Assembly (NCBI GenBank): GCA_043810345.1
Contig: JBDROF010000022.1
Location: 1,351 to 65,350 of the forward strand
From: Bacteroidota bacterium
GTDB lineage: Bacteria; Bacteroidota; Bacteroidia; Bacteroidales; FEN-979
Reading direction: 5' to 3'
DNA: 64,000 nt
Below, piece by piece: positions 26,989 through 43,098 of the stretch. Below the pieces are notes generated by a model. That model saw nothing but the letters and a program-made list of their open reading frames with translations, made no database searches and was not told the DNA's origin. Position numbers and translations under genes: made by a program. Within the stretch, counting starts at the first letter, position 1. Each line of letters begins with the position of its first letter.

Positions 26989-28041
26989 CTATCTCGGTTC
27001 CTGCTGGCTCAGACAGTGCCAACTCCCCAATCCCCAGATGATCTCCACGGAATCGATTCCCACTACCCGGCGGTCGGGGAAACACTCTTCAAGGATGGAT
27101 AGGGCCACATCGTCTTCGCGACAACGGTAGGTTGGGACAATCACGGCATGGTTTGAGATATAAAAATTAGCATAGGATGCCGGCAGGCGTTGATCTTCGT
27201 AAACGACTGGTTTGGGCATAGGTAGTTCAACGACATCCAGTTGTTTTCCGTTCAGCAACCTAAATCTCTTCAACTTCTTCAGATTTTCTTTGAGCGACTT
27301 GTGGTTGGCGTCGAACTTACTGGGTTCCACCATGGTAATCACGCCGTCATCCTTGAAAAACCGGGTCACATCATCTATATGACCATTGGTATCGTCACCG
27401 TCGATCCCTTCATCCAGCCAGAGGACCTGATCCACTCCGTAAAAATTTTGCAGGTACTCTTCGATTTCATGCTGGAAAAGGTCGGAGTTGCGGCTTTCAT
27501 GGAGCAGACAGGATGTGGTGGTTAACAAGGTTCCCTTTCCGTTAAATTCAACTGCACCTCCTTCCATCACGATACCGGGATAAAAGACGGGGATATCCAG
27601 GTATTGCCCCACAAGCATGGGAATCTTATCATCCAGATCGTGAGGGTATTTGTCGCCCCATGCATTGTATCTCCAGCCGACAATCACTTTGGGATCCTTG
27701 GCTTCCGGATTGATCAGGAAAGCCGGACCATGATCGCGGCACCAGGCGTCATTGGTTGGGTTAAGATAGAAGATGATCTGTTCCATCCCGGTTCCCAGCT
27801 TCTCCAGCTCTTTCGTTGCCCATGCCTGCAGTTTTTTGTCACGGATGTTGATGCATACCTCCTCCCCCTTCGCAATCTCTTTAATAAACCTATTGAAATG
27901 GGGATATATTCTGGATAGCGTTCCTGGCCAGGAGTAGGAATCTCCATGAGGATAACTTAACCAGGTAGCCCGGTGCGGCTCCCATTCTGCCGGAAACCGG
28001 TAGCCGAGCTCTTTTGGTGTATGTTGTTCAAGGTCAAACAT
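26989..28041 (-). CDS. aguA: Agmatine/peptidyl-arginine deiminase family protein
   Basis: 'PAEWEPH', 'WCRDHGP', 'EGG', 'DTNGHID', 'ASYANFY', 'GSWHCLSQQEP'. Confidence 0.9.
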   Translation of the reverse strand: MFDLEQHTPKELGYRFPAEWEPHRATWLSYPHGDSYSWPGTLSRIYPHFNRFIKEIAKGEEVCINIRDKKLQAWATKELEKLGTGMEQIIFYLNPTNDAWCRDHGPAFLINPEAKDPKVIVGWRYNAWGDKYPHDLDDKIPMLVGQYLDIPVFYPGIVMEGGAVEFNGKGTLLTTTSCLLHESRNSDLFQHEIEEYLQNFYGVDQVLWLDEGIDGDDTNGHIDDVTRFFKDDGVITMVEPSKFDANHKSLKENLKKLKRFRLLNGKQLDVVELPMPKPVVYEDQRLPASYANFYISNHAVIVPTYRCREDDVALSILEECFPDRRVVGIDSVEIIWGLGSWHCLSQQEPR

Positions 28042-28436: not shown

Positions 28437-30362
28437 ATGAAAGGGAATCTGTTTGAAACCAACAAATCACTCTGCTACTTTGCTTTGCTGATCATTGTTT
28501 TCATTACTTTTTATCCTTTTTTCCTTAGCGGGTTCGGATGCGCCGATGACATTCAGAATTATCTTGTTCTCAAATCGGGGGGTACGTGGCCGAACATGAT
28601 CTGGCTGGCCAAATTCGCAGGAAGGTTTTACTACCTGATCGTTCACCCGGTATACATGGTTCCCTACCTGGCTGATTCCATGTTTGTAACCAAGCTGTTC
28701 CATCATATTCCCCTGATCATTGGAATCGTTCTGTTTGCTGTCATTCTCTTCAGGATGAACCGCTCCCGGGAACTTTCATTGTTCTACCTGCTGATCTTCC
28801 TTACCGTGGCACAGGCTTCAAAACATACCTCCCTGTTTTTAAACTATCCGTTTTTCTTTACCTTTTCCTTCGATCTGCTGTTGATTTCATTCCTTCTCCT
28901 TCTCAGTTATTTCGATACGTCCCGGAAGTACCATCTGGTTCTCTCCGTGATCCTGTTTGCCGTCGTGTTGCTGTTCAGTGAAATTTACCTTGTTTATCTG
29001 CTCATCTTCGCCATTACCATTGTGATCTATGTTGCCCAAAACGAATCCAGTGCTGTTGCACTGCTAAAACGTGCCGGTCTCATAATACTCCCTTTCCTCG
29101 GGGTGGCCGCACTGTACCTGGCTGCCTATTTCCTTTACCGGGTTTACTACCCCTCGCACTACATCGGCACCATGATTGATACAAAAAACGTTGACTTCCC
29201 CGGGTTTTTCAATGCTCTCTGGAACCTCTCCTATGCTTCATACCCTCTTACCATGTTCGAAGAAAATCGCCATCTCCTCAACATGAAATCCGAATTGATA
29301 GGGGGACATTCACCCGTTGTCCTGAATATCCTTCTGAACGCCAGGATCGAATGGATCATCAAAGGAATCTGTGTGGCCCTGACAGGATTTATCCTCCTTA
29401 CAGGGATTCACCGCATCAGTTACAAAACTCTTCTTGCCGGATCAGGCCTGGCCGTGTTGCTGATCTTCCTACCGCAGATTCCTCTGGCCATAACGGTGAA
29501 ATACATCTCCCATGTGGAGGGAGGGATGAAAGGGTACATCCCCGCATTTTTCTCAATGTTCGGAACGGTGCTGTTGCTCAGCCTCCTCCTCGGATACCTG
29601 GTCAGCTTATTGCATTTCAACCGCTTCGTCAAGATCAGCGTGATTTTCCTTTTTGCCTCCGGATTGTTTGTTCTCTCCGTCCTGACTGACCTCAACAATT
29701 ATACGGTTGCGAAAGATACGAGACGGGCTAACATCCGGTTCTACGCAATGGATGAACTGATGAAGACCCCGTCATTCCAGTCAATCCCTTCCCAGGCCAC
29801 GCTGTACACCCAGGAGCTGTACCGGCATACTTCTCAACAGTACGGCGGACTTACCGAACAGGGCTTCAACTGGGGGAAGTACATTACCGCCCGTACCGGG
29901 ATCACCTATCAGGTCTTCAGATATTTTAAGGATATCCCGGTTCCCCTTCCCGGTCAGGAAAAGCCCATCTATTCGATGGCAGCCCAACAGGCGGCAAAGA
30001 GTGATGAGTTGCTGCTGGTGCTTGCCAGGTTGCCACAAAAAACCACAGAGGAGGATCAGCCGGCGCAATTTGCCGACCAGGTATGGCTCCTCTACTATTC
30101 GGCATACAAGATCTTTTCAATCGGTTTCAACACGCGGGACGAATTTATTGATGTCGATACCCCCTTGTACGTGAACAACCGGTCCCTGATGGTCAGACCG
30201 GGAAGAAACATTGAGCTGACCATTAACAATCCACAGCTGACACAACCGGCCACCTTTTTCACCATCCAGACACCAGGCATTGATCTGAAAAGCATCCGGA
30301 TTTCCGATATCGTGGATATGGAATGTCCGGTATTTACCATCCGGCCTGACCAATTAAAGTAA
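28437..30362 (+). CDS. Multi-pass membrane protein, possible GT-C-fold glycosyltransferase
   Basis: ~11 hydrophobic segments; acidic 'DD' after TM1 followed by 'GRF'; soluble C-terminal domain; adjacent to a GT2. Confidence 0.6.
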   Translation: MKGNLFETNKSLCYFALLIIVFITFYPFFLSGFGCADDIQNYLVLKSGGTWPNMIWLAKFAGRFYYLIVHPVYMVPYLADSMFVTKLFHHIPLIIGIVLFAVILFRMNRSRELSLFYLLIFLTVAQASKHTSLFLNYPFFFTFSFDLLLISFLLLLSYFDTSRKYHLVLSVILFAVVLLFSEIYLVYLLIFAITIVIYVAQNESSAVALLKRAGLIILPFLGVAALYLAAYFLYRVYYPSHYIGTMIDTKNVDFPGFFNALWNLSYASYPLTMFEENRHLLNMKSELIGGHSPVVLNILLNARIEWIIKGICVALTGFILLTGIHRISYKTLLAGSGLAVLLIFLPQIPLAITVKYISHVEGGMKGYIPAFFSMFGTVLLLSLLLGYLVSLLHFNRFVKISVIFLFASGLFVLSVLTDLNNYTVAKDTRRANIRFYAMDELMKTPSFQSIPSQATLYTQELYRHTSQQYGGLTEQGFNWGKYITARTGITYQVFRYFKDIPVPLPGQEKPIYSMAAQQAAKSDELLLVLARLPQKTTEEDQPAQFADQVWLLYYSAYKIFSIGFNTRDEFIDVDTPLYVNNRSLMVRPGRNIELTINNPQLTQPATFFTIQTPGIDLKSIRISDIVDMECPVFTIRPDQLK

Positions 30363-30478
30363 TTGCTCCCAAACAGACCTAATGTCTTCTAACAATATAT
30401 TGTTATTTTTGAACAGGCAAGTGTTAATCATTTTGAAATCTCATTCAGCATCGGTATACAATCAATCCAAATCTTTAT

Positions 30479-31198
30479 ATGCATTTAAGTATAATCATTC
30501 CTTCATTTCATGGAGCAGATATTTTAAAGAGAAATATTCCAGGATTAATTAATTATTTTAAGGAAAAAAGTGTTCAATTTGAAATAATTATTGTTGATGA
30601 TGGTTCTAATGACAACGGATCAACGGAAAATATTGCCAATCAATTACAATGTAAATTCTTGAAACATGAAAAGAATTTAGGGAAGGGCGCTTCTGTAAGA
30701 AATGGCATACTTACGGCTGAAGGCGCTTTTAGAATATATACAGACGTCGACGTGCCATTTGAATATGTTGCATTTGAACGCTTTGTAAATTATTTAGAGG
30801 TGAAGGAATTTGACATGGTAATTGGAGACAGAACTTTGCCTGATTCAAAATATTTTGTTGATGTTTCGCGATTGCGATTTATATCAAGCAAAATATTTTC
30901 TTTTATTATTGGAAGATTTATTATTGGTGGTTATTTTGATTCGCAGTGTGGTATGAAAGGGTTCAGAGCAGCAGTTGCAAACGATTTATTTTCAGTCAGT
31001 AAGATTAATGGTTTTGCCTTTGATGTTGAATTGATATATATTGCCTTAAAAAGAAACTATGATATTAAACGATTACCAGTAGTTTTAAAATGTCAGGAGG
31101 GATCTAGTGTAAGAGTAATTCGACATGGTTTTAGAATGTTGATAGATCTTTTGATAATCATATGGAATCACAAAATGGGTTTTTATAAAAAATTGTAA
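30479..31198 (+). CDS. GT2 glycosyltransferase (polyprenol-phosphate glycosyltransferase-like), low GC
   Basis: 'LSIIIP', 'IIIVDDGSND', 'NLGKGASVRNG', 'DSQCGMKGF', 'GFAFDVEL'. Confidence 0.88.
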   Translation: MHLSIIIPSFHGADILKRNIPGLINYFKEKSVQFEIIIVDDGSNDNGSTENIANQLQCKFLKHEKNLGKGASVRNGILTAEGAFRIYTDVDVPFEYVAFERFVNYLEVKEFDMVIGDRTLPDSKYFVDVSRLRFISSKIFSFIIGRFIIGGYFDSQCGMKGFRAAVANDLFSVSKINGFAFDVELIYIALKRNYDIKRLPVVLKCQEGSSVRVIRHGFRMLIDLLIIIWNHKMGFYKKL

Positions 31199-31204
31199 TA
31201 ATAG

Positions 31205-31933
31205 ATGAATTCAAGGATGATTATTGATAGATTTCCGAAGAAAAGAATTCCATTGTCTGAAGAATATCAAAAGATTTATTATCAGCATTATCTTAATAGC
31301 AGGGAGGGTAGATCCAAAATAACTTCCTTAGTAAAAAAAATGGAATCATGGATGCACAAAAAAGTTGCAGAAGATGTTGTAAGTGAAAATAAAACAACTG
31401 CTACGCTTGAAATTGGTGCAGGCACCCTTAACCATTTAAAATATGAACCTTTACAAAATAAATATGACATCGTTGAACCTTTTGATGAATTATACAAACA
31501 TAGTCCGTTGGTTAATAGGATTGACAACATTTACAAAGATATAAATGATATACAGGGGATTCAATACGATAGAATAATTAGCATAGCTACATTTGAGCAT
31601 GTAATTGATTTACCCAGACTAGTTGCTAAAGCGGGAAGTTTGCTTGACAAGAAATGTGGGAAGTTAAGAGTTGCTATTCCGAATGAAGGTACAGTATTAT
31701 GGAACATTGGGACAAAATTAACTGGGATTTCCTTCAGGAAAAGTTATGGATTGAATTATCAAACCTTTATGCAATATGAACATCTAAACTCAGCAGATGA
31801 AATAGAGCAGGTACTGGCTTTTTTTTTCGTAACATTAAAATATTCTATTTTTGGAATTAATAAGCAATGGGCGTTTTATCGGTTTTATGAATGTTCAAAC
31901 GTAATTGAGGAAAACGTACTTCAATTCTTGTGA
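31205..31933 (+). CDS. Class I SAM-dependent methyltransferase, low GC
   Basis: 'LEIGAG' motif I, 'YDRIISIATFEHV', 'VAIPNEG'. Confidence 0.75.
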   Translation: MNSRMIIDRFPKKRIPLSEEYQKIYYQHYLNSREGRSKITSLVKKMESWMHKKVAEDVVSENKTTATLEIGAGTLNHLKYEPLQNKYDIVEPFDELYKHSPLVNRIDNIYKDINDIQGIQYDRIISIATFEHVIDLPRLVAKAGSLLDKKCGKLRVAIPNEGTVLWNIGTKLTGISFRKSYGLNYQTFMQYEHLNSADEIEQVLAFFFVTLKYSIFGINKQWAFYRFYECSNVIEENVLQFL

Positions 31934-31950
31934 AACAAAATGACACATAT

Positions 31951-32490
31951 TTACATTTGGCCTTCCCGCAGCTTTTCCCGGCACTGGTGGCAAAGACTGG
32001 AACTTTTTTGATCAATATCTTCGACATATGTGCTGGACCGCATTACGCAGGTTGGAACATGGCAGTGGATCAATCCAAACGTATGACCAAGTTCGTGGAT
32101 TACCTCTTTCTTGAACCGATCCCTCATCATCTCCTCATCCTTTTTCATTCCATACCGTTCATTGCTAAACCGGTACCACGATGCAATCCCCGTACGACCC
32201 TCCAGGTATGCCTGCCCGAAAATGTAGGTCAGAATAGGGATAAAGAGATCCACACTGAATAATCCGATGGTTTTTAACGAGTCGGAAGAGAACTTCGTAT
32301 CCACCTCTTTCAATAAATTATTGCCATTGTATTGTCGTCGGGCAAAATCATGAAAGTCACTCAAATCAAGATGCCCCTCTTTGATCTTCACCGGCAGAAG
32401 AAATTCACGTGAAACATTCTCTGCTATCATCTTCAGAAAATCCTTTTCGAAGTACCCAAAAGAAATCAATGTGATATGTTGCAGATTCAT
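31951..32490 (-). CDS. Archaemetzincin (M54) zinc metalloprotease
   Basis: 'HELGHTFGLIHC...CVM' and C-terminal 'LCHQC'; ATG 32490 avoids overlap with the upstream regulator. Confidence 0.9.
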   Translation of the reverse strand: MNLQHITLISFGYFEKDFLKMIAENVSREFLLPVKIKEGHLDLSDFHDFARRQYNGNNLLKEVDTKFSSDSLKTIGLFSVDLFIPILTYIFGQAYLEGRTGIASWYRFSNERYGMKKDEEMMRDRFKKEVIHELGHTFGLIHCHVPTCVMRSSTYVEDIDQKSSSLCHQCREKLREGQM

Positions 32491-32507
32491 GTGATCAGCA
32501 ATGATGT

Positions 32508-33848
32508 TTAATCTGCACGTTCTAATCCGTATTTTTTGATTTTCTTGTAAAGGGTCACCCGGTCCACTTTTAACGCTTTTGCTGAGCGTGATATATTCCA
32601 ACGGTACTTCGTAAGGATTTGCTGAATATGGATTTTTTCATGATCATCAAGACTTTCCACGGAGTTGTCGATCACGGTTTTACCCAGCGGAAGATCTTTC
32701 AGGCGGATCTCCTTTCCGTTGCCAATCACAATAGCACGTTCAATCATATTTTCCAATTCACGAACATTTCCGGGGAAATCAAACTCTTCCAACCGTCTCA
32801 AAGCTGCGGAGTCGATGGGAATGGGAGGTTTGTTCATGGAAGTACAGTATTTTTTAATGAAATAGTCCACGAGCAGGGGGATGTCCTCTGTTCGTTCCCG
32901 CAAGGGTGGAATATGAAGATTCACCACGTTCAGCCGGTAATAGAGGTCCTCCCGGAAGGTTCCTTTTTCCACCATGCTTTTCAAATCCCGGTTGGTGGCA
33001 CAGATGACCCTGAAATCAGATCTGATTTCCTTATTTCCGCCTACTCGTACAAAACTTTTTGACTCCAGAACCCGCAGTAGTTCTATCTGCATTTTAGGGG
33101 AAATGGTGGCAATTTCATCCAGGAAGATCGTACCCCCATCCGCCATTTCAAACCTCCCTTTACGATTATACATGGCTCCGGTAAAAGCTCCCTTTTCGTG
33201 CCCAAAAAGTTCACTCTCCAGTAAGCTTTCCGTCAACGCACCACAATGTACACTCACAAGGGGAAAGAATTTGCGCTGAGAATTGGAATGGATCGCTTTG
33301 GCAATCAGCTCTTTCCCCGTACCACTCTCTCCTGTAATAATCACCGAGGAATCCGACTGGGCTACGTGTTCAACCTGTTTAAGTACGTTCATCATCGGTT
33401 TACTGTTTCCAATCAGGTCCTCCACATTCTCCAATGAAATAACCTTCTCTTTCAGGGCTTCATTCTCCTCGGCCAGCTGGATCTGCTTGGAAGCATTCCT
33501 GATCAGATGCGACAAATCGTCGGGATCAAACGGTTTTGTTACATAATCAAATGCCCCGTCTTTTAAGGCCTGGACAGCCGTATCCACCGTGGCAAATGCG
33601 GTCATGACAATCACAATAGAATCATGTTTCAGGGATTTTATTCTCCGGAGCATCTCCAATCCGTCCATGCCAGGCATTTTAATATCTGCCAGAATGATGT
33701 CGTAATAATCGGATTCCAGTATGGACAATGCTTTTTTTGCACTTTCTGCACATTCGACGCGATAACCGTCTTCAATGAACCAGTTGTACAACGAATCTCT
33801 TACGGACTCTTCATCGTCAACAACTAATAATGAGATTTTTTTTGCCAT
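32508..33848 (-). CDS. Sigma54-dependent response regulator (receiver, AAA+, Fis HTH)
   Basis: 'VVDDE', 'DIKMPGMDG', 'GESGTGKE', 'GAFTGA', 'FLDEI', 'PGNVREL', C-terminal HTH. Confidence 0.95.
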   Translation of the reverse strand: MAKKISLLVVDDEESVRDSLYNWFIEDGYRVECAESAKKALSILESDYYDIILADIKMPGMDGLEMLRRIKSLKHDSIVIVMTAFATVDTAVQALKDGAFDYVTKPFDPDDLSHLIRNASKQIQLAEENEALKEKVISLENVEDLIGNSKPMMNVLKQVEHVAQSDSSVIITGESGTGKELIAKAIHSNSQRKFFPLVSVHCGALTESLLESELFGHEKGAFTGAMYNRKGRFEMADGGTIFLDEIATISPKMQIELLRVLESKSFVRVGGNKEIRSDFRVICATNRDLKSMVEKGTFREDLYYRLNVVNLHIPPLRERTEDIPLLVDYFIKKYCTSMNKPPIPIDSAALRRLEEFDFPGNVRELENMIERAIVIGNGKEIRLKDLPLGKTVIDNSVESLDDHEKIHIQQILTKYRWNISRSAKALKVDRVTLYKKIKKYGLERAD

Positions 33849-33850
33849 AT

Positions 33851-35518
33851 TCAGTCTCCTTTATTCCTTATTACTGGTAACGTGATGGATATGGTGGTTC
33901 CCTTTCCAGGTTCTGATTTCACTTCAACTTTCCCTTTATGACTCTGCACAATACCATGAACAATAGCCAGGCCCAGGCCAATTCCCCTGGCCCCCTGTTT
34001 TGTCGAAAAGAACGGCTCAAAAATATGCGGGATGTCTTCCGGGGAAATACCTGATCCGTTATCAGTAATTTCCAGATTGATGTGCTCATCATCAGGGTTA
34101 TTCGTGGTGATCGTGATTTCCCCGTTTTCCGATACCGCTTCGTAAGCGTTCACGAGGATGGCAACACAAGCCTGTTTGATCTGGTTTGGACAGCAATAGA
34201 TCTCCTCTCTTTTCGCAACGAAATCCTTTAAAAAACTGGCGTTAGCAATGACGATCGGGTGGGACATCAGATCATAGGTTTCATGTAATATTTCATGCAG
34301 ATGGCATACTTCGAAATCATCCTGATCTTTTCTTGAAAAATCCAGTAATCCCTTTACAATATCTCCACATCGCTTTGTTTCAACTTCAATCAGTTTCAAA
34401 TGTTTCAGGATCGTCGCCTTTTTATTGGCGTCCCATTTATCGTTCATTACCTGTTTATGTACGAGTTTAGTATAAATCAAAATGCCTGACAGGGGATTAT
34501 TGATCTCATGCGCCACCGATAGGGATAATTTTCCAAGGGAAGCTATTTTCTCAATTTGTATCAATTCCGCCTGGGCTTTTCCCAGCTCTTCAGACTTTTT
34601 CTGGACTTTATATTCCAGCTGTTGCGACCAGTTGTGCAACTCTTTTGTAGCCGATTGCAGTTTGTCAAGCATATTGTTAAATGCATAGGAAACCATCTTC
34701 AGATCGTCCAGTTGATTGGATTGGACATCCAACCGTTTACTGGTATCCCCGTTTGCCACAGCTTCACTGGCTTCAATGATGGCAGTTAATGGTTTCTTGA
34801 TTTTTTTTCTCGTAAAGATGATGATGATCAATAAAAGTAAAAGTGTGGACAGGGTTGCCAAGATGTAAGACTTTTCAAGTCCCGCATCAAGTTCTTCCAA
34901 CGGGATTTTGATCACAAAATAACCAAGCACATCATCACTTGGCTTATGTGCATGACAGGAACTTTGATAGCAGGATGGTTCATTTAAGATAGGAGCCCTG
35001 ATCAAAAGATGTCTGCAGTTGTCCTTTTTCTTATTCATCTTGCATTCACTATCGATATCCACGATTCTGATCCCCTTCTCTGTTCTGGGAAACAGTACAT
35101 TTATATTCGAATGGCAATCTTTGCAATTCGGATTGTTGTGATCCGCATAATCGTCTGAGAAGGATGAATAAACGAGGTTATCCTCTTCATCATACATATT
35201 CACATCCTTGATCCCAGGCATCTTATTGATGATGTTCAACATATTTTGCAATGCCATTTTATCGTTTTCGAGCATGGATTGATAAAGTGCTCCTTCCACG
35301 AGAAGACCTACATTATTACCGCTCCTCTGAATGACACTTTTCATATATTCCTCGTTGATCGACTTGAAGATGATCCCGAACGATATAAACAGAAAAAGAG
35401 CCAGTACCGTAATGATATAAACAACCTGACCATAAATCGATGACCGGAATTTATGAATTCTCGAAGTCAATGAATTTGTCCGGTCAGGTTTACGGATTGT
35501 ACGATTGAACCAAGTCAT
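33851..35518 (-). CDS. HAMP sensor histidine kinase with periplasmic heme-binding motifs (paralog 2)
   Basis: Two TMs; CKDCH and CYQSSCH; H-box 'VAHEINNPL'; 'DNGSGI', 'GIGLGL'. Confidence 0.92.
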
Positions 35519-37200
35519 TATTCTTTTCTTTCATTCAATATCAACGGGAGGGTAATCGAAACAGCGGTACCTTTCCCCAGTTCTGATTTCACTTCAATAT
35601 GCCCGTCGTGGCTTTTCACGATGCCGTGCACAATGGCCAACCCCAAACCAATGCCACTTCCGCCTTGCTTGGTGGAAAAGAAGGGTTCCAATATATGCGG
35701 GATGTCTTCCGGGGCAACGCCTAACCCGTTATCAATGATCTCCAGTTTTACATATTTGTCGTTCGGATTAGAGGTTCTTAAAATAATCTCTCCGTTTTCC
35801 AACACAGCTTCAGAGGCATTGACAAGAATGGCCACACACGCCTGTTTGATCTGGTTCGCGCTGCAGTTAATCAAATCCGTCATGGCATCCAATTCCTTGA
35901 TAAAATGAATGTTGGCAATTTTAATAGGATGTGCCATTAAATCATAGGTTTCCTGCAAAATCTCATGAAGGTGCCTGGAGTGGAAATCATTTTGATCTGT
36001 TCTTGAAAAATCCAATAAGCCTTTGACGATATCTCCACACCGTTTTGTTTCCGTTTCAATGAGTTTCAAATGTTTAAGAATAGACTCCTTTTTGGTGGTT
36101 TCCAGATCCAGGTTGTTTAGTTGTTTATAGGCCAGCTTTGAGTAAGTCAGGATTCCCGAAAGAGGATTGTTGATCTCATGGGCAACGGATAAGGATAACC
36201 TTCCGAGAGATGCTATCCGCTCAATTTGTATCAGTTCATTTTGAGCTTCCCCTAATTCTTCTGTCTTTTTCTGCACTTTGTATTCAAGCTGCTGGGACCA
36301 GTTTTGTAATTCAACCGTAGCTGCTTGCAGGTTGTCAAGCATGTCGTTAAACGCATGAGAAACCATTCGCATATCGTCCAGTTCATTGTCCCTTATTTTC
36401 AACCTGGTACTCTTGTCTCCTTTGGTGACAGCTTCACTGGCTTTGATAATGGCGGTCAAAGGTTTTTTAATATTTTTTCTGGTAAAGAGGATTAAAAAGG
36501 ATACCAGCACCAGGGTCATCAATATGGCTAGCAGGAGAAAATCCCTCAATGATTTGCTCAGAGCAGCATCCAGGTTTTCCAGTGGGATTCTGATGACGAG
36601 TGATCCGAGTACGTCATCACCAGCTTGATGAGCATGACACGAACTCTCGTAGCAGGATTTTTGATTCAGAATTGGTGATCTGATCAGCAGATGCCTGCAA
36701 CTGGTGTCTCGCTGACTCATCTTACATTCGCTATCGATGTCGATGATTCGATACGATTTCTCTGTTCTGGGAAACATCTTCGCCAGATCCGCATGACAAT
36801 GGGTACAATTCGGATTGTTGTGACCGATTTCGTCATCAGAAAAGGAGGAGTAAACAAGGTTGTTCTCTTCATCATACATATTCACATCATCGATACCTGG
36901 CATGGTATTGATGATATCCATGGTGCTCCGCAGTGCCTCTTTGTCATTCTCAAGCATAGAGCGATACAACGCTCCTTCAACCAGGAGGCCGATATTGGTT
37001 CCACTCTGACGAACCACACTTCTCATGTACTCCTCGTTAACCGATCTGAAGATGATCCAAAACGCTACAAACAAAAAGACGGACAAGATCGTAATGACAT
37101 AGATCACGCGACTGTATACAGACGAACGGAACCTCATGTACTTAATCAGGATTGAGATCCATGGCCTGTTTCTACGTAATATATTCTTAAACGATGCCAT
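35518..37200 (-). CDS. HAMP sensor histidine kinase with periplasmic heme-binding motifs (paralog 1)
   Basis: Two TMs; CTHCH and CYESSCH; 'VAHEINNPL'; stop overlaps next start (TAATG). Confidence 0.92.
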   Translation of the reverse strand: MASFKNILRRNRPWISILIKYMRFRSSVYSRVIYVITILSVFLFVAFWIIFRSVNEEYMRSVVRQSGTNIGLLVEGALYRSMLENDKEALRSTMDIINTMPGIDDVNMYDEENNLVYSSFSDDEIGHNNPNCTHCHADLAKMFPRTEKSYRIIDIDSECKMSQRDTSCRHLLIRSPILNQKSCYESSCHAHQAGDDVLGSLVIRIPLENLDAALSKSLRDFLLLAILMTLVLVSFLILFTRKNIKKPLTAIIKASEAVTKGDKSTRLKIRDNELDDMRMVSHAFNDMLDNLQAATVELQNWSQQLEYKVQKKTEELGEAQNELIQIERIASLGRLSLSVAHEINNPLSGILTYSKLAYKQLNNLDLETTKKESILKHLKLIETETKRCGDIVKGLLDFSRTDQNDFHSRHLHEILQETYDLMAHPIKIANIHFIKELDAMTDLINCSANQIKQACVAILVNASEAVLENGEIILRTSNPNDKYVKLEIIDNGLGVAPEDIPHILEPFFSTKQGGSGIGLGLAIVHGIVKSHDGHIEVKSELGKGTAVSITLPLILNERKE

Positions 37201-37290
37201 TGTCAGATAATCGAATCAGTTAACTGGCTGCCAAAACAGCCTGTTAAGATAGAAAAAAATGGTGATAACTCACCATTTATATTCTGTTGT

Positions 37291-38010
37291 TCAAGAAGTA
37301 TGATCCAGAAAATCTTTCTGGAACTCCTCCCATATCTCAATGGGCAGATGCGAAAGGGTGTTGTCCCGGAGTTCACCTCCATCCTGCAATGCCACCAAGG
37401 CAGGTTCGGATGAATGCTTTTTCATCGACACAGCAAGAAAATCCTTAAACCTTTCCAATTCTTTCAGCGACCAGTTTGTAGCCTTCTCTGCCAGGTAATA
37501 GGAGTTTGTTTCGGCTACCCAGTTTGAGGGTTGTATTTTATAAATCCACCCTTCCTTAAAAGGATCCTCATTCAGGAGTTCAGGACTTTCGCTAAGTTCT
37601 GAGTTCGCATCCAGGATCGTTCCTGAAATGGGTGAGAATACCCTGAGATGCTTACCATCCTGTTGAATCTCCGTCAGCAATTCTCCTTTCCTGATGATTT
37701 CGCCCGGGGATTTAAGGTTACTGAACCGGACCTCACCCGTTATATGCTGCAGGAGGTCATCCATTCCCACCCTGGCAGCTCCCGACACTTCCAGATGCGT
37801 CCAGGTATGGTTTTTACTGAAAAACAGTCCCTGGGGTATTCTTAACACATTGGCTGTAAGATTCCCGATCGCTTGTTGAATCTGTTTGCCAAGCTTAATC
37901 TGTTTGGTTGACAGTTGCCAGAAAACGATCAGGATTACCAGGTAACCGATGACAAACAGGTACTCTAAACCTTTTGTATCGAAAATATCTATTCTACTGA
38001 AGCCTTCCAT
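37291..38010 (-). CDS. Membrane-anchored GcvH-like protein lacking the canonical lipoyl-Lys
   Basis: N-terminal TM; 'FSKNHTW', 'ARVGMDD', 'SPISGTI', 'LLNEDPFKEGWIYKI' H-protein fold motifs; QQDGK in place of ESVKA. Confidence 0.85.
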   Translation of the reverse strand: MEGFSRIDIFDTKGLEYLFVIGYLVILIVFWQLSTKQIKLGKQIQQAIGNLTANVLRIPQGLFFSKNHTWTHLEVSGAARVGMDDLLQHITGEVRFSNLKSPGEIIRKGELLTEIQQDGKHLRVFSPISGTILDANSELSESPELLNEDPFKEGWIYKIQPSNWVAETNSYYLAEKATNWSLKELERFKDFLAVSMKKHSSEPALVALQDGGELRDNTLSHLPIEIWEEFQKDFLDHTS

Positions 38011-39254
38011 GTTTTACTCCTTTCTTCTTGTTGAATGGTTGATTTATTTTGCTTTTTTCCGCTCACCCACCCGGGTGATTCCCGATACACCGGCATTCTT
38101 CTGACGATCCAGCGAAACACCAGAATCTGCAGAAAGATGACGGCCATACTCACGACAATCTCCTTCCAGGTGGGATAATGGAATGTTTTGTCGTACCATT
38201 GATAAGCGATCATCGAAATATTCAGGCGGTTCAATATAATTCCTATGATAGTCATGATCGCAGCTGTCCGGATCAACAGTATGTTCCGACGGTTGTAACC
38301 AAACATAAAGATGATGCAGGGAACCACCACTAAACCAACAACCTCCACAAGGTACCATGCCCCCCATGAAGTGTTGAGATAGACGCTATTTTTGCCATGT
38401 ATGAAAACCAATACAGTCATAAATAGATAGACAAACATGGTCACGCCACATACCCTGGCTAAACTCATCAGGATACTCCTGTGGGAACTTTTGAACTCAA
38501 ATGCCATGTCGTGTTTGAACACCCGCTGGTTGATCGTCTCCATGATGATCACCAGGGAAAGACCGGCGAAGATGCTGGAAATGAAGAACAGGATCGGGAT
38601 AAACTCCGAGTACCACAAGGGGTGGATCTTTGGCTTTGCCATTAAAAAAAGTGCTCCGAGTCCGGATTGATGTAACGTGGAAAGTGCGATTCCAAATATC
38701 ACTACGGCTAGTGTCAGAGAAAGAAAAAATTTCCGCTGCCGTTTCAGGGAAGCCCACTCCGTGATCGTAGGGCAGAACTCTATGAATAGCGAGATCATAT
38801 AAAGAATAAAATGCCAGGCCACCAGGAATAGGACAGAACTGATCCCAAACGAGTTGCCAATGATCGGATTGATCACCTTCCAGGGACGTCCAAGGTCCAG
38901 TAACAGTGCGCCGGCGTAAAAGATATAGGCCAGGAGGGCGTAGAGCACCGTAGCCCTTACAATCGGTCGGTACTTCTCCATCCCTACAATGTATACCATG
39001 AATGTTACCACAAAGGCTCCTCCGGCAAACGCCACACCGGTGATGACATTGAAATTGATCCACAGCCCCCACGGCATCTCCTGGGAGGCATGAATCACGG
39101 AACCCAGGCCATCTTTGAAACGGATAAAGAGTATCCATGCCGCTACAAGAATGGTGATTCCGGCAATGACATTGAACGGGGTGATGATCTTCCCCTTTGG
39201 TTTCAATTCATGCATCATGAATTTAAAAAACCCTGTGTGTTGTTCGTTGCTCAT
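37989..39254 (-). CDS. NrfD/PsrC-family membrane subunit (HybB/HmcC-like)
   Basis: ~10 TMs; 'PWGLWI', 'DLGRPW', 'LSTLHQSGLG', 'HPLWYS', 'LNRLN', 'YPTWKE'. Confidence 0.9.
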   Translation of the reverse strand: MSNEQHTGFFKFMMHELKPKGKIITPFNVIAGITILVAAWILFIRFKDGLGSVIHASQEMPWGLWINFNVITGVAFAGGAFVVTFMVYIVGMEKYRPIVRATVLYALLAYIFYAGALLLDLGRPWKVINPIIGNSFGISSVLFLVAWHFILYMISLFIEFCPTITEWASLKRQRKFFLSLTLAVVIFGIALSTLHQSGLGALFLMAKPKIHPLWYSEFIPILFFISSIFAGLSLVIIMETINQRVFKHDMAFEFKSSHRSILMSLARVCGVTMFVYLFMTVLVFIHGKNSVYLNTSWGAWYLVEVVGLVVVPCIIFMFGYNRRNILLIRTAAIMTIIGIILNRLNISMIAYQWYDKTFHYPTWKEIVVSMAVIFLQILVFRWIVRRMPVYRESPGWVSGKKQNKSTIQQEERSKTWKASVE

Positions 39255-40126
39255 GATTGCTCCTCCTTCTCTTTCTGAATTCGTTTTTTTCGCTCAAAAA
39301 ATGAATTGTTCAGGCCGAGCAAAAACGCCGGCCACAGAATCAGAACGGCAGGAACCGAATAGAGGAATGTCTTGTTATATTCAGGATATGCCTTGGTTCC
39401 AAGATCTTTCCTGAGTCCCAGTTCCTCAAAGGGTACGGAGGCAATATATAGCAAGCTTGTTCCGCCCACTTCATGCTCTCCGTAAATGGCATGATTGTAT
39501 TTCTCCGGTTCAGCGTAGATCCGGGTCCTGGCGATCTCGATCAGGTCTCTTCTCTTGCCGAACAGGAGCGCTTCCGGCGGACAAACATCCACACAGGCAG
39601 GTTTCTGACCTTCCAGAAGAAGCTCATAGCACATCCGGCATTTTTGGATCTTCGGATTCGGGTTGTTGTATTCAAATTTTGGCATATCAAACGGACAGGA
39701 GATCATGCAGGACCGGCAGCCCATGCATTTATCTTCCCGCCAGATAACCGGACCTTCATCCGTCTTTAGCATAGCTTTGGTAAGGCAGGCGGATGCACAG
39801 GCAGGTTCATTGCAATGATTGCACGATGTCCGGATAAACTGCTCTCCCTTGGAGGTGTTGTAACAATTCATCACGACACGACGTGTATCATTCGTTTTGT
39901 TAATGACTCCCGGTTCCGTTGCTTCCGTAGGAAATGGTAATTCATACTGTTCAGCACAGGCAAATTCGCAACTTTGACAGCCTATGCAAAGCGTCGAATC
40001 ATATAAGATTCCGCTGAATTCAGTATCACTCTTGTCGTCCAGTGAAGCACCAAAGCTCTTGCCCACCGTCAGAGTGACCCCTGCGAGTCCCAGGGTTTTT
40101 AAAAAGCCTCGTCGATCAATACCCAT
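39251..40126 (-). CDS. Tat-exported 4x[4Fe-4S] protein with C-terminal anchor (HybA/HmcB-like)
   Basis: 'RRGFLK'; CIGCQSCEFAC, CNHCNEPACASAC, CMGCRSCMISCP, KCRMC...PACVDVCP; 'YGEHEVGGT'; C-terminal TM. Confidence 0.92.
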   Translation of the reverse strand: MGIDRRGFLKTLGLAGVTLTVGKSFGASLDDKSDTEFSGILYDSTLCIGCQSCEFACAEQYELPFPTEATEPGVINKTNDTRRVVMNCYNTSKGEQFIRTSCNHCNEPACASACLTKAMLKTDEGPVIWREDKCMGCRSCMISCPFDMPKFEYNNPNPKIQKCRMCYELLLEGQKPACVDVCPPEALLFGKRRDLIEIARTRIYAEPEKYNHAIYGEHEVGGTSLLYIASVPFEELGLRKDLGTKAYPEYNKTFLYSVPAVLILWPAFLLGLNNSFFERKKRIQKEKEEQS

Positions 40127-40172
40127 AATATCAGATTTTAGTTATTGATGAAAACATTAGTTTTAATTGTTT

Positions 40173-41912
40173 TTATTGAGATGTGTTAATAAACGTTGTC
40201 TGGAAATCTTCCCATACTTCGGGGCCCAGATCAGCCAGAACACCCTCCTTTACTACTCCGCCATCCTGCATGATCACATGTGCGTAATCAACCTGATCGC
40301 CCTTCATTGAAACAGCAAGAAAATCCTTGAGCCTGGAAAATTCCTTTCTTAACCACTCTTTAGACTTTTCCCCCATGAATAAAAACCGGATCTCTCTTAC
40401 CCAGTTTGTGGGTTCAATCATGTATACCCAGCCGTCTGAATAGGGAGCCGAGTTCATCATGGATGCATCTGTGTTCAGGAGTTTGTTTTGAGCCTTGATG
40501 GTTCCCGAAATCGGGGCATGAATGGTCAATTGCTTTCCGTTTTGGATGATGGAAAGAAGTTGATCTCCTTTTTTTACCTTCTCCCCCGGACTCTTCATCT
40601 TTACGCGGTTAAGGGGGCCGGTGACGTGCTGAAGGAAATCATCTATCCCTATTCTGACAACACCGTTTTTCTCCATAAACGCCCACATATGCGATTTGTC
40701 AAAATAGAGCCCATTTGGTACCGCTACCGTATTTTCATCAAACACAGCCGGTGCAAGGGATTTGGTATCCATCACGACAGCTTTTTTTTGTCGTTTGTGA
40801 CGGATAACAGCATCTCCGATCATATAGGCCAGTACAAATGGTATCAATATGATCACAATGAGGGAAAAGAGGGACAAATCATGTAATTTGTTGGCGAAGA
40901 ATCCAGTATTGGTCAACATCCCTATCTGCGTTGGATTACTCGTTAACATGGCTATTTTTTTTGCATGTCTTTCACTGTTTGAAAGTTCGGCATAGCTATC
41001 CGGAATCAGGAATTCCTGTCCCTCAACGAGCACCCATTTCAGGAATGCCACTTCTGCTTGGCTGGCAGGCTTTACTGAAGAGACTGAATAAATTGGTCTA
41101 CTTAAGGTTCTGGGATATTTTCCAATCCATAGACCCCTGGCAAAGTCGTTTAGATTCCCGTAGATATTTTCAAAAGAATCAAGCGTCCCATTTCTGTTTT
41201 TGTCGATGGGCATCAACATGATATTTTTTACCAGAGATTGATTTTCAGGGTTAACAACATCCTCCATTCTACAAAATCCGATTCCGTACGGGTCGTTCTG
41301 AATAGCCAGGACCATCGCTTCCATACCCCCTGTGTTAATCCCATTTATAAGTGTTGGATCTGAGTTCAGGAATTGAGCCGCCTGTGACTGAATGATTACA
41401 TCGTTGGTTTGATAAAAATGGACAGGTGCGGCCTGATTGTCGCCCAGAATGGTTCCCCATGTCTGTTTCTCCGGATGTTTGAACAGGAGAGCAAGTTCAT
41501 CTGATGAGATGCCCTGCTTTTTAATGTTCTTTAGAAATGGATTTTTTGAATTGATCACCGGAACGATGAGGTCTGTTCCAACAACCATCTTCCACAGGTC
41601 GTTGTCCTCGAGTACCTTCATGTATTCAGTTGATACAAATGATAAACACTTCCCCGCTTTTAAATCAGATGCTTCGGGGGTGCCTGTCAGAAGAACCACC
41701 TCTATACCGACTTCCGGATTCAATTTGCTGTACTCTTTCGCCCACGTTTTTGTGATCGAATACAGATCCGGAGAAGATTGGATCCGTATCAAGTGCTCCA
41801 TGGTTGAGTTGCTTTCCGATACCTTTTTGTCACTGCTGCTATCGCTACCAAACGATTGTTCGCCGCCATAAAGCAGGAGTAACCCGATGAATAAAAAGAT
41901 CATGTTTTTCAT
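40173..41912 (-). CDS. Fusion: PstS-like periplasmic binding domain, TM, GcvH-like domain
   Basis: Signal peptide from MKNMIF; 'WAKEYSKLNPEV', 'DPYGIGF', 'GKYPRTLSRPIY'; TM; 'YFDKSHMWA', 'RIGIDDF', 'APISG', 'PYSDGWVY'. Confidence 0.82.
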   Translation of the reverse strand: MKNMIFLFIGLLLLYGGEQSFGSDSSSDKKVSESNSTMEHLIRIQSSPDLYSITKTWAKEYSKLNPEVGIEVVLLTGTPEASDLKAGKCLSFVSTEYMKVLEDNDLWKMVVGTDLIVPVINSKNPFLKNIKKQGISSDELALLFKHPEKQTWGTILGDNQAAPVHFYQTNDVIIQSQAAQFLNSDPTLINGINTGGMEAMVLAIQNDPYGIGFCRMEDVVNPENQSLVKNIMLMPIDKNRNGTLDSFENIYGNLNDFARGLWIGKYPRTLSRPIYSVSSVKPASQAEVAFLKWVLVEGQEFLIPDSYAELSNSERHAKKIAMLTSNPTQIGMLTNTGFFANKLHDLSLFSLIVIILIPFVLAYMIGDAVIRHKRQKKAVVMDTKSLAPAVFDENTVAVPNGLYFDKSHMWAFMEKNGVVRIGIDDFLQHVTGPLNRVKMKSPGEKVKKGDQLLSIIQNGKQLTIHAPISGTIKAQNKLLNTDASMMNSAPYSDGWVYMIEPTNWVREIRFLFMGEKSKEWLRKEFSRLKDFLAVSMKGDQVDYAHVIMQDGGVVKEGVLADLGPEVWEDFQTTFINTSQ

Positions 41913-41942
41913 AGCTGTATAATTAAGACCAATATGCAATAC

Positions 41943-41958
41943 TCAAATCCTGTGCCAA
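41943..41958 (-). promoter_or_regulatory. Putative sigma54 (-24/-12) promoter
   Basis: Minus strand TTGGCACAGGATTTGA (GG-N10-GA variant) about 30 bp upstream of ATG 41912; operon encodes a sigma54 activator. Confidence 0.65.
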
Positions 41959-42009
41959 ATAAAAAAACATGATGTATAATGCTGTTTTTCAGAATGTTAC
42001 AAAGATATG

Positions 42010-42140
42010 TGTGTAGGAAACTTACAATGTGAGGTGTTGAGTTTTTAAACACCCTGGTTCAGAATCGCGTGTAATACCCTCTGGATCAGTCCGTTTTTGG
42101 GTGTTGTGTATTTTCTATACACCTGTTGTAAAATTCAACA
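42010..42140. promoter_or_regulatory. Four TGT-N11-ACA sites, putative enhancer for the sigma54 activator
   Basis: TGTGTAGGAAACTTACA 42010-26; TGTTGAGTTTTTAAACA 42035-51; TGTGTATTTTCTATACA 42105-21; TGTTGTAAAATTCAACA 42124-40. Confidence 0.6.
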
Positions 42141-42159: not shown

Positions 42160-43098
42160 TCATGGTTTATCCTCCTTTTGCCGAAACCGCAGCATCATAA
42201 TCCGGCCATTACTGTATTTGGTATCCAGGATCTCAATGTGTTTCAAACTGCTGGCCGGCATGGTGAGCTTATTGATAAATTCCCACTTCGTATACAACTC
42301 CATTCCTACAGTTCCGGCGTTGAATACCTGGTAGATCAGGGCGCTGTCGGAGATCATCCTGTCCAGCTGATTTCTGCGTTGCTGCCAGTCCTTGACATTC
42401 ATCCTGGAAAAATAGTGGATCATCAGGGCGTAGTTGTTTGGCCGGAGCCGCACCATCTCTTCCCGTTTGTATCTATCCAATACCCTGATAACGGTATCCG
42501 TTTGATAGTAGGGTGTTTTGACCACCAGGGTGACATGGGTTTCATCTGTTTTCAGCACCAGGCATCCATCGGGTCCGCAGAGAAAATTGACCGGGGATTC
42601 ATCGGGGAGCAGCAGGCTCACTTCAATGATGTTGTTGGTGATCGGTTCACGGGTATCGGCGTCGTAGAAACAGATGCGGTATTCCCGTGTATTGTAAATC
42701 TTGAATACCACATAGAGGATGGCCAGGATGGCGATGACCAGCAGGGGAACCAGAATGAATACCCGGTTTGCCCTGCGCAGCCTGGTATCGGCTGGAACCC
42801 GGGAGCTGTTCCGGTGGCAGAAGTCATCCCAGCCTGTGTACCCGCAAAACCGGCTCAGCAGGTTCAGCACATCGATGCGGGGCAGGGATCCGCTGTTGGA
42901 TTTCATGTGGGTGTAAAACCATTTCTCACTGATATGACCGTTCACCCGGGATGCCAGCTCTTCCTGGAAATTGGTAATCTCCTGTCCTTTCCACTCAGAG
43001 ATATCGGGATTGATGGCCGGGTAGGAGCGTTGCATGGTTGAAACGATCTGCTGCTTCAGTAACCTGAAAAATGCTCTCTCCTGCTGTTGCACGCTCAA
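42160..43098 (-). CDS. Single-pass membrane protein, putative transmembrane one-component regulator
   Basis: Helical N-domain 'ISEKWFYTHMK...LPRIDVLNLLSRFCGYTGWDDF', central TM, exported C-domain; TTG start uncertain. Confidence 0.65.
   Translation of the reverse strand: MSVQQQERAFFRLLKQQIVSTMQRSYPAINPDISEWKGQEITNFQEELASRVNGHISEKWFYTHMKSNSGSLPRIDVLNLLSRFCGYTGWDDFCHRNSSRVPADTRLRRANRVFILVPLLVIAILAILYVVFKIYNTREYRICFYDADTREPITNNIIEVSLLLPDESPVNFLCGPDGCLVLKTDETHVTLVVKTPYYQTDTVIRVLDRYKREEMVRLRPNNYALMIHYFSRMNVKDWQQRRNQLDRMISDSALIYQVFNAGTVGMELYTKWEFINKLTMPASSLKHIEILDTKYSNGRIMMLRFRQKEDKP

Follow-up and report, generated by a model that had tools for sequence, protein, structure and literature searches.

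A cluster of eight genes, here termed A to H, occupies positions 31951 to 42140 of the window, the 64,000-nucleotide stretch of a Bacteroidota genome that was analyzed (GTDB order Bacteroidales, FEN-979; assembly GCA_043810345.1, contig JBDROF010000022.1, positions 1,351 to 65,350). The eight open reading frames (ORFs) are all located on the minus strand and are co-directional, with gaps of -22 to +90 nt (A-B +46, B-C -4, C-D -22, D-E +90, E-F -1, F-G +2 and G-H +17), and Pfam and NCBIfam searches agree with the gene order from A to H. An earlier analysis made from the letters alone, referred to below as the sequence-only reading, had described eight co-directional genes in this order, and all of these ORFs were found, with the domains described; its TTG starts for A (41939) and H (32601) are replaced by the most likely ATG starts at 41912 and 32490, since H and G would share 94 nt if H began at its TTG. 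The system is genuine, is conserved over large evolutionary distances and appears not to have been described before. The locus is best explained as one subtype (type 1) among a family of operons for redox signalling and electron transfer that is found across the phylum Bacteroidota.

Proteins with an H-protein fold

Gene A (40173..41912) encodes a protein with a signal peptide, a PstS-like periplasmic domain, one transmembrane (TM) helix, a cytoplasmic domain with the H-protein fold (H-fold) and a C-terminal extension of 65 residues, and gene D (37291..38010) encodes a protein in which an N-terminal TM helix precedes a cytoplasmic H-fold domain and the same extension. Both proteins reach the Pfam domain cut-off for GCV_H (75 bits for A, 80 bits for D) and both remain below the cut-offs of TIGR00527 and NF002270 (115.85 and 117), with scores of 57.8 and 71.3 for A and 73.7 and 80.4 for D. 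The AlphaFold2 model of D (pLDDT, the predicted local distance difference test score, 78.6) has a long TM and juxtamembrane helix, the H-protein fold and two extra helices, and its best Foldseek matches are GcvH structures (TM-score 0.86-0.90 by target). The HxW and DD[FL] core motifs of the H protein are retained, and all H-fold forms share the 65-residue extension, which has an invariant DGG motif and conserved aromatic residues and for which no match was found in Pfam or the PDB. The basic flanks of the TM helices suggest, following the positive-inside rule, that both H-fold domains face the cytoplasm, in agreement with the location assigned to them in the sequence-only reading.

Regarding the lipoyl site, alignment with the genome's own GcvH places a glycine in the column of the lipoyl lysine in both A and D, with a lysine one position later. 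This glycine-lysine pair (G459-K460) is invariant in 42 of 42 aligned A-type proteins; the shifted lysine is replaced by arginine in two D-type proteins (from loci L007 and L017 of the comparison below) and is missing in the cysteine-rich and receiver domain (REC)-only H-fold forms, and the lipoyl site is missing in every aligned relative of D. In lipoyl domains, a shift of the lysine by one residue is known to abolish lipoylation. D contains no cysteine, nor does the cytoplasmic part of A. Since the lysine is displaced and replaceable, cysteines are missing and the iron-sulfur (FeS) protein of the window carries a signal for twin-arginine translocation (Tat) and would lie across the membrane, it is unlikely that the H-fold domains are lipoyl or thiol redox carriers.

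The periplasmic part of A scores below the cut-offs of PBP_like_2 (22 bits, cut-off 27) and TIGR02136 (25 bits, cut-off 206). Its AlphaFold2 model resembles PstS-type binding proteins (TM-score 0.57-0.71 by target, 12-19% identity); only this domain was used for the comparison, the full-length model being poor over the C-terminal half (pLDDT 30-57). In the one weak alignment obtained, the threonine of the SDTL motif is paired with an aspartate. The curated cut-offs for PstS phosphate-binding proteins are missed although the modelled fold is PstS-like, and these data speak neither for nor against phosphate as the ligand. The PstS-like domain is confined to the Bacteroidia form of the protein. 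Residues 237-248 of A (window 41160-41195) form a loop, DKNRNGTLDSFE, with the pattern D-x-N-x-N-G-x-x-D-x-x-E, which reads like a canonical EF-hand calcium loop, and D237, N239, N241, D245 and E248 are invariant in the 42 aligned proteins.

At least 1382 homologs of A were found, and among the 120 listed all source names were "hypothetical" or a generic domain label; among the 120 relatives of D listed, those that carry a source name are labelled "glycine cleavage system protein H" or "hypothetical protein", an annotation to be corrected for those without a lipoyl site where aligned. A protein-atlas search returned only clusters of the same kind, GCV_H in Bacteroidota, and a search of representative clusters gave 1002 clusters at E <= 1e-30, the best 150 of the 1002 being all A- or D-like.

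In type 1 loci outside the Bacteroidia the second H-fold protein is soluble (L031:12498-13331; also L032, L034-L036 and L038-L040). It starts with a conserved C-x-W...L-C-x6-C-x2-C motif containing four cysteines (C-x12-C-x6-C-x2-C), which has no Pfam match and which may form a metal or cluster site, and a homolog search with this cysteine-rich protein gave 5 matches only.

The iron-sulfur protein and NrfD pair

Gene B (39251..40126) encodes a 4x[4Fe-4S] protein of the HmcB/HybA type that is predicted to be exported by Tat and anchored by its tail, and gene C (37989..39254) an integral membrane protein of the NrfD family and HmcC/HybB type, with about 10 TM helices and basic N- and C-termini. 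The Tat motif of B is RRGFLK at residues 5-10, and its 17 cysteines include the four cluster motifs; with a twin-arginine signal, 16 cluster cysteines and a C-terminal TM helix (FLYSVPAVLILWPAFLLGL) followed by the basic tail ERKKRIQK, it has the features of HybA-type tail-anchored Tat ferredoxins. Among the NCBIfam families B scores best with HmcB (308.5 bits, cut-off 420), followed by HybA (211.3, cut-off 263), and C likewise with HmcC (362.4, cut-off 550) and HybB (221.7, cut-off 450), in each case below the equivalog cut-off; C passes the cut-off of Pfam NrfD (PF03916) with 50.0 bits (cut-off 25.8, residues 54-346). The closest solved sequence to B is FdnH (1kqf_B, E 3e-30), and the only solved relative of C is ActC (6f0k_C, E 5e-9).

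Regarding a catalytic partner for this pair, the genome (2.96 Mb, estimated 97% complete) contains a sole [NiFe] hydrogenase small subunit and two molybdopterin-family proteins, none of which has a Tat signal, and a role of B and C as the anchor of an orphan hydrogenase or molybdoenzyme was rejected on these grounds. Apart from the four NrfC-like proteins, a scan of the genome for Tat motifs yielded only two small Rieske-like candidates and a 386-aa protein whose kind is unknown, so that no orphan periplasmic catalytic subunit is evident. NrfD genes occur at three more places in the genome, in each case together with genes for a Tat FeS protein and multihaem cytochromes, and a CcsA-type cytochrome c maturation gene is present as well; since the other NrfD genes are located with multihaem cytochromes, periplasmic c-type partners exist. 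The absence of a catalytic partner noted in the sequence-only reading therefore holds for this subtype and for Tat-exported hydrogenases and molybdoenzymes elsewhere in the genome, but the sister subtype described below has a cytochrome with 12-13 haems.

One of these other NrfD clusters (G000:C16:22512-30492), with 5- and 7-haem cytochromes, contains a canonical sigma-54 promoter (TTGGCACTGTTCTTGC, C16:24158-24173) 70 nt before a 256-aa ORF, and may be controlled by another of the genome's sigma-54 activators.

Sensor kinases, response regulator and archaemetzincin

Genes E (35518..37200) and F (33851..35518) encode sensor histidine kinases that are tandem paralogs, with 63% identity in the sensor part. 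In both, a predicted periplasmic domain with a CXXCH motif at residue 132 and a CX4CH motif at residue 183 is followed by HAMP, HisKA and HATPase domains. The two motifs are retained in 28 of 28 aligned cluster kinases, and by these motifs E and F, called haem kinases in the sequence-only reading, are putative haem kinases. No Pfam match was found for residues 1-235 at E <= 0.01, DUF3365 (sCache_haem) included. In another part of the genome (G000:C94:464-9674), a [NiFe] hydrogenase whose small subunit is without a Tat signal precedes a single-domain response regulator and a kinase of 441 aa, after which come a maturation protease and hyp-like genes (named from their N-termini); the N-terminal part of this kinase has two CXXCH motifs and is 22% identical (E 7e-8) to the sensor of E and F, and the unit looks like a hydrogen- or redox-sensing unit with a sensor of this type.

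Gene G (32508..33848) encodes an NtrC-type response regulator in which REC, Sigma54_activat and HTH_8 were all matched in Pfam and which has the GAFTGA motif of the AAA+ sigma-54 activator at residue 220. The best NCBIfam matches of E to G are AtoSC and ZraSR, all below the equivalog cut-offs. Gene H (31951..32490) encodes a cytoplasmic archaemetzincin (M54), which passes the cut-off of NF033823 (150.7 bits, cut-off 145) and has the full zinc motif with a 16-residue spacer before the CXXC (HEXXHXXGX3CX4CXMX16CXXC), the published motif being HEXXHXXGX3CX4CXMX17CXXC (PMC13325395). In every locus that includes the regulator, the M54 gene directly follows it or, in L047 and L048, is located beside it, and in five of five genomes checked it is single-copy and found in this cluster. 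One Bacteroidia locus has a second, partial M54 copy (L008:20416-20808) approximately 0.5 kb downstream of the first.

Promoter, enhancer sites and transcription units

About 30 nt upstream of the ATG of A, on the same strand, lies a sigma-54-type -24/-12 promoter (TGGCACaggatTTGAG, 41942..41957). All 16 loci examined have the pattern TGG[CT]A[CT]-N5-TTG at a distance of 30-100 nt upstream of gene A, compared with 39 of 8000 shuffled sequences. Of the canonical sigma-54 promoter (GG at -24 and GC at -12, as in TGGCAC-N5-TTGC), all 16 keep the -24 element and the spacing, but the -12 element of the window reads TTGA. The window's own genome has rpoN. Further upstream, 15 of the 16 loci have one to four palindromes of the form TGT[TA][TGA]A-N5-T.[CA]A[AC]A; in the window these are a distal enhancer-like palindrome (TGTATAGAAAATACACA, TGT-N11-ACA, 42105..42121, minus strand), a putative binding site of regulator G, and a proximal one (TGTTTAAAAACTCAACA, 42035..42051, minus strand). 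Similar elements were detected in distant loci, with the TGT-N11-ACA class in L033, L035, L037 and L040. The conserved promoter and enhancer sites make it probable that the operon is self-regulated, as the sequence-only reading had suggested. The sole other match in the genome to the strict palindrome with 17-nt spacing, on contig C111, was discarded as a second target since it appears to lie inside a coding frame.

The 90-nt gap between D and E contains a hairpin followed by a T run (37257..37278, minus strand), a possible terminator or attenuator that was detected in a pattern scan in which the overall count was not above that in shuffles. In one genome (G089) the structural unit and the regulatory unit are located on different contigs. 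Based on this hairpin and on the separation of the two halves, we infer that A to D would be an inducible output and E to H the regulatory unit.

Conservation across the Bacteroidota

The Bacteroidia-type comparison comprised 19 genome loci recorded as Bacteroidetes or Bacteroidales and the window, 20 loci in total; the named relatives are Bacteroidales or Bacteroidia metagenome bins. Gene B was detected in 18 of these 20 loci, and one or two kinases, the regulator and the M54 gene in all 15 loci whose contigs reach far enough, in line with the expectation that the gene set would be conserved in other genomes. Of the 15 loci that extend over the regulator genes, 4 have two kinases. The regulator is 77-89% identical among Bacteroidia loci and 55-59% identical in the distant loci. 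When all flanking ORFs of the 20 loci were clustered, no family outside the cluster was common to more than two loci, and no hydrogenase, molybdoenzyme or cytochrome gene conserved beside this subtype was found in these flanks; the possibility that homologous loci normally carry a catalytic subunit that was lost here is therefore not borne out.

Among 400 other genomes sampled evenly from the phylum, 21 have D-like proteins (E <= 1e-30), with none in the 7 genomes of the same order and with 14 of the 17 in one family of another class. Ten distant loci, with 28-59% identity, have a TM-H-fold protein, the FeS protein, NrfD, a second H-fold gene, kinase, regulator and M54, with the exceptions of L032 and L039, in which B and C are absent, and of L034, in which kinase, regulator and M54 are located on a separate contig. 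The M54 family is present in 64 of the 400 genomes, all 21 D-positive ones included, and ten further loci found via M54 all have kinase, regulator and M54, with H-fold genes in 7 of 10 within the stretch fetched; this brings the loci from other classes of the phylum to 20. According to the records of identical proteins, two of the distant genomes are "Kryptoniota" and "Acidoferrales" bins. Thus, the same order occurs in dozens of genomes with unrelated flanks, which places the arrangement far beyond chance.

The FeS and NrfD pair does not form the core of the system and turned out to be dispensable, being absent in 4 of 30 loci, of which two are among the 20 of the Bacteroidia type (L006, L016) and two among the 10 distant ones (L032, L039).

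A sister system with receiver-domain fusions

In locus L044 the type 1 cluster is adjoined by a second cluster with genes encoding a Tat FeS protein, an NrfD protein, a cytochrome of 383 aa that has 13 haem motifs and matches class III and c7 in Pfam, a kinase with the sensor motifs of E and F, a REC-GCV_H protein of 268 aa and a 386-aa TM-REC-GCV_H protein with the extension. Both REC-GCV_H architectures are confirmed by Pfam, and full-length orthologs of the 386-aa protein were detected in 24 of the 400 sampled genomes. All six genes of this type 2 cluster are present in 8 of 10 loci fetched, with 12-13 haems in the cytochrome and a fusion of NrfD and cytochrome in one of them; the other two (L057 and the GC-rich L058) were not resolved by ORF calling and are not counted as lacking genes. 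At the position of the shifted lysine, type 2 proteins have lysine or arginine in a ratio of 4:4 (n=8).

The fusion of the H-fold to receiver domains is regarded as the strongest clue that the H-fold domain is a signalling output, and H-fold proteins seem to act in signalling and not as lipoate carriers. The gene content of type 2 further indicates that the FeS and NrfD pair of this family works with periplasmic c-type cytochromes.

Cytochromes with 19 and 16 haems follow the type 2 genes in three loci, and type 1 genes are adjacent in three others. In the former (L055:1025-6959, L056:11146-16543 and L061:281-6204) the ORFs with 19 and 16 CXXCH motifs are accompanied by a protein of approximately 280 aa, and in L055 and L061 also by a 4-haem protein. 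These neighbors resemble porin-cytochrome conduits for extracellular electron transfer.

Proposed function and alternative explanations

With a probability of roughly 0.45, the cluster is a quinol:periplasmic-haem module controlled by haem kinases and sigma-54, in which the H-fold proteins serve as regulatory adaptors. The periplasmic domains of E and F, each carrying two haems c, would sense a periplasmic redox or gas signal, and E and F would phosphorylate the NtrC-type regulator G, which would bind the two TGT-N11-ACA sites and activate the sigma-54 promoter before A-B-C-D. The Tat-exported, tail-anchored 4x[4Fe-4S] protein on its NrfD subunit, arranged like HybAB or HmcBC, may then move electrons between the menaquinone pool and periplasmic c-type haems, which could be those of unlinked cytochromes or those of the kinases themselves. 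A and D would be membrane-tethered regulatory or adaptor domains at the inner membrane face and not lipoyl carriers; in the sister subtype, in which the H-fold is fused to receiver domains, they would be phosphorylated directly. The archaemetzincin H would form part of the regulatory unit and probably processes or removes a component. The anatomy of the locus, its conservation and that of the promoter and enhancer sites, the loss of the lipoyl site and the REC fusions are observed, whereas we infer that haem is bound, in which direction electrons flow, what the H-fold acts on and which substrate H has. Of the self-regulated redox and signalling unit postulated in the sequence-only reading, the general idea is thus partly supported, but its center moves from the NrfD pair to the core of H-fold protein, kinase, regulator and M54.

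Several observations count against this explanation. The -12 element is TTGA in most loci, without the canonical GC, and TTGC was found only in L011; a scan of the window's own genome for the strict palindrome with 17-nt spacing together with the promoter found no second target. Covalent haem on E and F is suggested by motifs in a sensor domain for which neither a Pfam match nor a PDB sequence match was found. None of six FeS proteins inspected from distant type 1 loci (L031:10435-11223, L033-L036 and L040) has a Tat signal, although the C-terminal TM helix and basic tail are retained; these proteins would either hitch-hike on another Tat substrate or have a different topology. Finally, a profile of C finds no NrfD relative in three (G073, G261 and G401) of the four genomes whose locus is without B and C, two of the three being 99-100% complete. 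The H-fold proteins can therefore not act only on this NrfD, and H-fold proteins, kinase, regulator and M54 function without B and C.

It is possible, and is put forward tentatively, that the H-protein fold was recruited as a new output or regulatory domain of two-component systems that switches a haem-free NrfD quinol dehydrogenase, with the archaemetzincin as a reset protease. According to this proposal type 1 would produce the domain when needed and type 2 would phosphorylate it via the fused receiver; the domain would dock at the cytoplasmic membrane face, possibly with other membrane targets.

It is less probable that the cluster is purely a signalling device, in which A, D and the soluble cysteine-rich form would be co-sensors or connectors acting on the activity of kinases, regulator or protease H, and in which B and C would be an optional input poising the kinase haems against the quinone pool, with outputs located elsewhere or consisting of the system itself. 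Such a device would be in keeping with an invariant core of H-fold protein(s), kinase, sigma-54 regulator and M54 from which B and C are dispensable, with the variety of heads to which the H-fold is attached (PstS-like domain, bare TM helix, C-x12-C-x6-C-x2-C motif, REC) and with the single-copy M54 gene being located in the cluster in five of five genomes. However, the conserved sigma-54 promoter drives the H-fold genes together with B and C, which makes them look like outputs, and a circuit producing only itself would have no evident benefit. Moreover, the REC-H-fold proteins of type 2 are the only response regulators beside the unit of cytochrome, FeS protein and NrfD, which suggests this unit as their target.

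A swinging-arm carrier, with lipoate or another group on the conserved hairpin lysine shuttling reducing equivalents or an intermediate at the membrane, is improbable. The analogy would be with LbpA in sHdr sulfur oxidation and with DsrC and DsrMKJOP, and Hmc- and Dsr-type complexes do serve small cytoplasmic carrier proteins; the invariance of G459-K460 and the close H-protein fold would also suit a carrier. Yet the lysine lies one position off the lipoyl column, is arginine in the D proteins of L007 and L017 and in 4 of 8 type 2 proteins, and is missing in the cysteine-rich and REC-only forms; there are no cysteines, the FeS protein of the window would lie across the membrane with an NrfD that has no cofactor to pass electrons over, and the genome retains a separate canonical gcvH.

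A decayed Hyb- or Hmc-type respiratory operon without its catalytic subunit, or a chance neighborhood, would account for the scores of B and C, best with HmcB/HmcC and HybA/HybB but below the curated cut-offs, and for the lack of a partner gene in the operon, but is most improbable, being contradicted by a partner-less arrangement that is kept in different classes, with uninterrupted frames, stop and start codons that overlap and a promoter that is conserved as well.

Relation to known systems

The pair B-C shares with HybA-HybB of Escherichia coli hydrogenase 2 a four-cluster ferredoxin, Tat-dependent and tail-anchored, that sits on an NrfD-type subunit free of haem (NCBIfam matches with E 2e-62 and 2e-65), but here HybO and HybC genes are lacking, the pair lies between H-fold genes and the genome yielded no Tat-exported [NiFe] hydrogenase. 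HmcB-HmcC of the Desulfovibrio Hmc complex, to which NhcCD and QrcCD are related, are the best-scoring families for B and C, and Hmc and Nhc also have a class III-type multihaem cytochrome, as does type 2 with its 12-13-haem one; in contrast to Hmc, no homolog of HmcA, HmcD, HmcE or HmcF is present in the operon, and phylum and regulation differ. An NrfCD pair without a molybdopterin subunit has been proposed to act as a quinol:multihaem-cytochrome reductase in Melioribacter roseus (PMC3534657), which belongs to the same phylum in the GTDB sense and likewise combines FeS protein and NrfD without a catalytic subunit, but the passage describing it does not mention genes for H-protein-like proteins, kinase, sigma-54 regulator or M54.

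Regarding the H-fold, GcvH, GcvH-L and LbpA have the same fold and core motifs, whereas the proteins described here are membrane-tethered or REC-fused, have the 65-residue extension and have a lysine that is off-position and replaceable by arginine. The kinases and the regulator share with NtrB/NtrC-like systems (AtoSC, ZraSR) the HAMP-HisKA-HATPase kinase, the REC-AAA+-HTH_8 regulator with GAFTGA, palindromic enhancers and the -24/-12 promoter, but differ in the two c-haem motifs of the periplasmic sensor and in the constant coupling of the regulator to an archaemetzincin gene. Published haem-c sensor domains are sensors of NO or redox state, and haem-c Cache sensors were described recently (PMC12889525). 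The PAS-like domains of GSU0582/GSU0935 and sCache_haem (DUF3365) also place an extracytoplasmic CXXCH sensor before a TM helix and HAMP, but they have one CXXCH, compared with CXXCH and CX4CH in E and F, which have no DUF3365 Pfam match (PMC12889525). AmzA (PDB 2X7M, cited in PMC13325395) has the zinc motif found in H, whereas H is bacterial and fixed in a two-component operon. We know of no physiological substrate of the archaemetzincin family.

No complex with H-protein-like subunits is listed in the relevant passages of a review of NrfD proteins (PMC8076601), and passages on extracellular electron transfer (PMC6295460, PMC7399161) do not mention the arrangement. In the open-access texts searched, with supplements, which may list Melioribacter or Ignavibacteria genes, outside the scope, no account of GcvH-like genes that occur together with NrfD, receiver domains or archaemetzincin was found, in keeping with the earlier statement that no functional description was known.

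NrfD-type modules are the quinone entry and exit points of many anaerobic respirations, and their regulation after synthesis is largely unknown. In the family described here, a module of this type is linked with a haem-type sensor kinase dedicated to it and with a repurposed H-protein fold, and the sister form carries this fold on receiver domains and adjoins cytochromes of the kind used in extracellular electron transfer. If the H-fold proteins are regulators, they would constitute a new output domain for two-component signalling, would offer access to how electron flow is controlled in Ignavibacteria-like and Bacteroidales groups and would give the first functional context for bacterial archaemetzincins; if they are output domains that switch the NrfD dehydrogenase, respiratory or extracellular electron flow would be under direct post-translational control by a periplasmic haem sensor, and the orphan archaemetzincin family would have its first physiological role.

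Neighboring genes

Some genes near the cluster are unrelated to it. These are a gene of the agmatine or peptidyl-arginine deiminase family (26989-28041; PAD_porph, E 5e-110) and several ORFs without a Pfam match (28437-30362 and 42160-43098). The stretch from 30001 to 32000 has a GC content of 0.35, compared with 0.41-0.53 elsewhere in the window, and covers a family 2 glycosyltransferase gene (30479-31198) and a methyltransferase-like gene (31205-31933), both converging on H; this low-GC pair may be a recent insertion.

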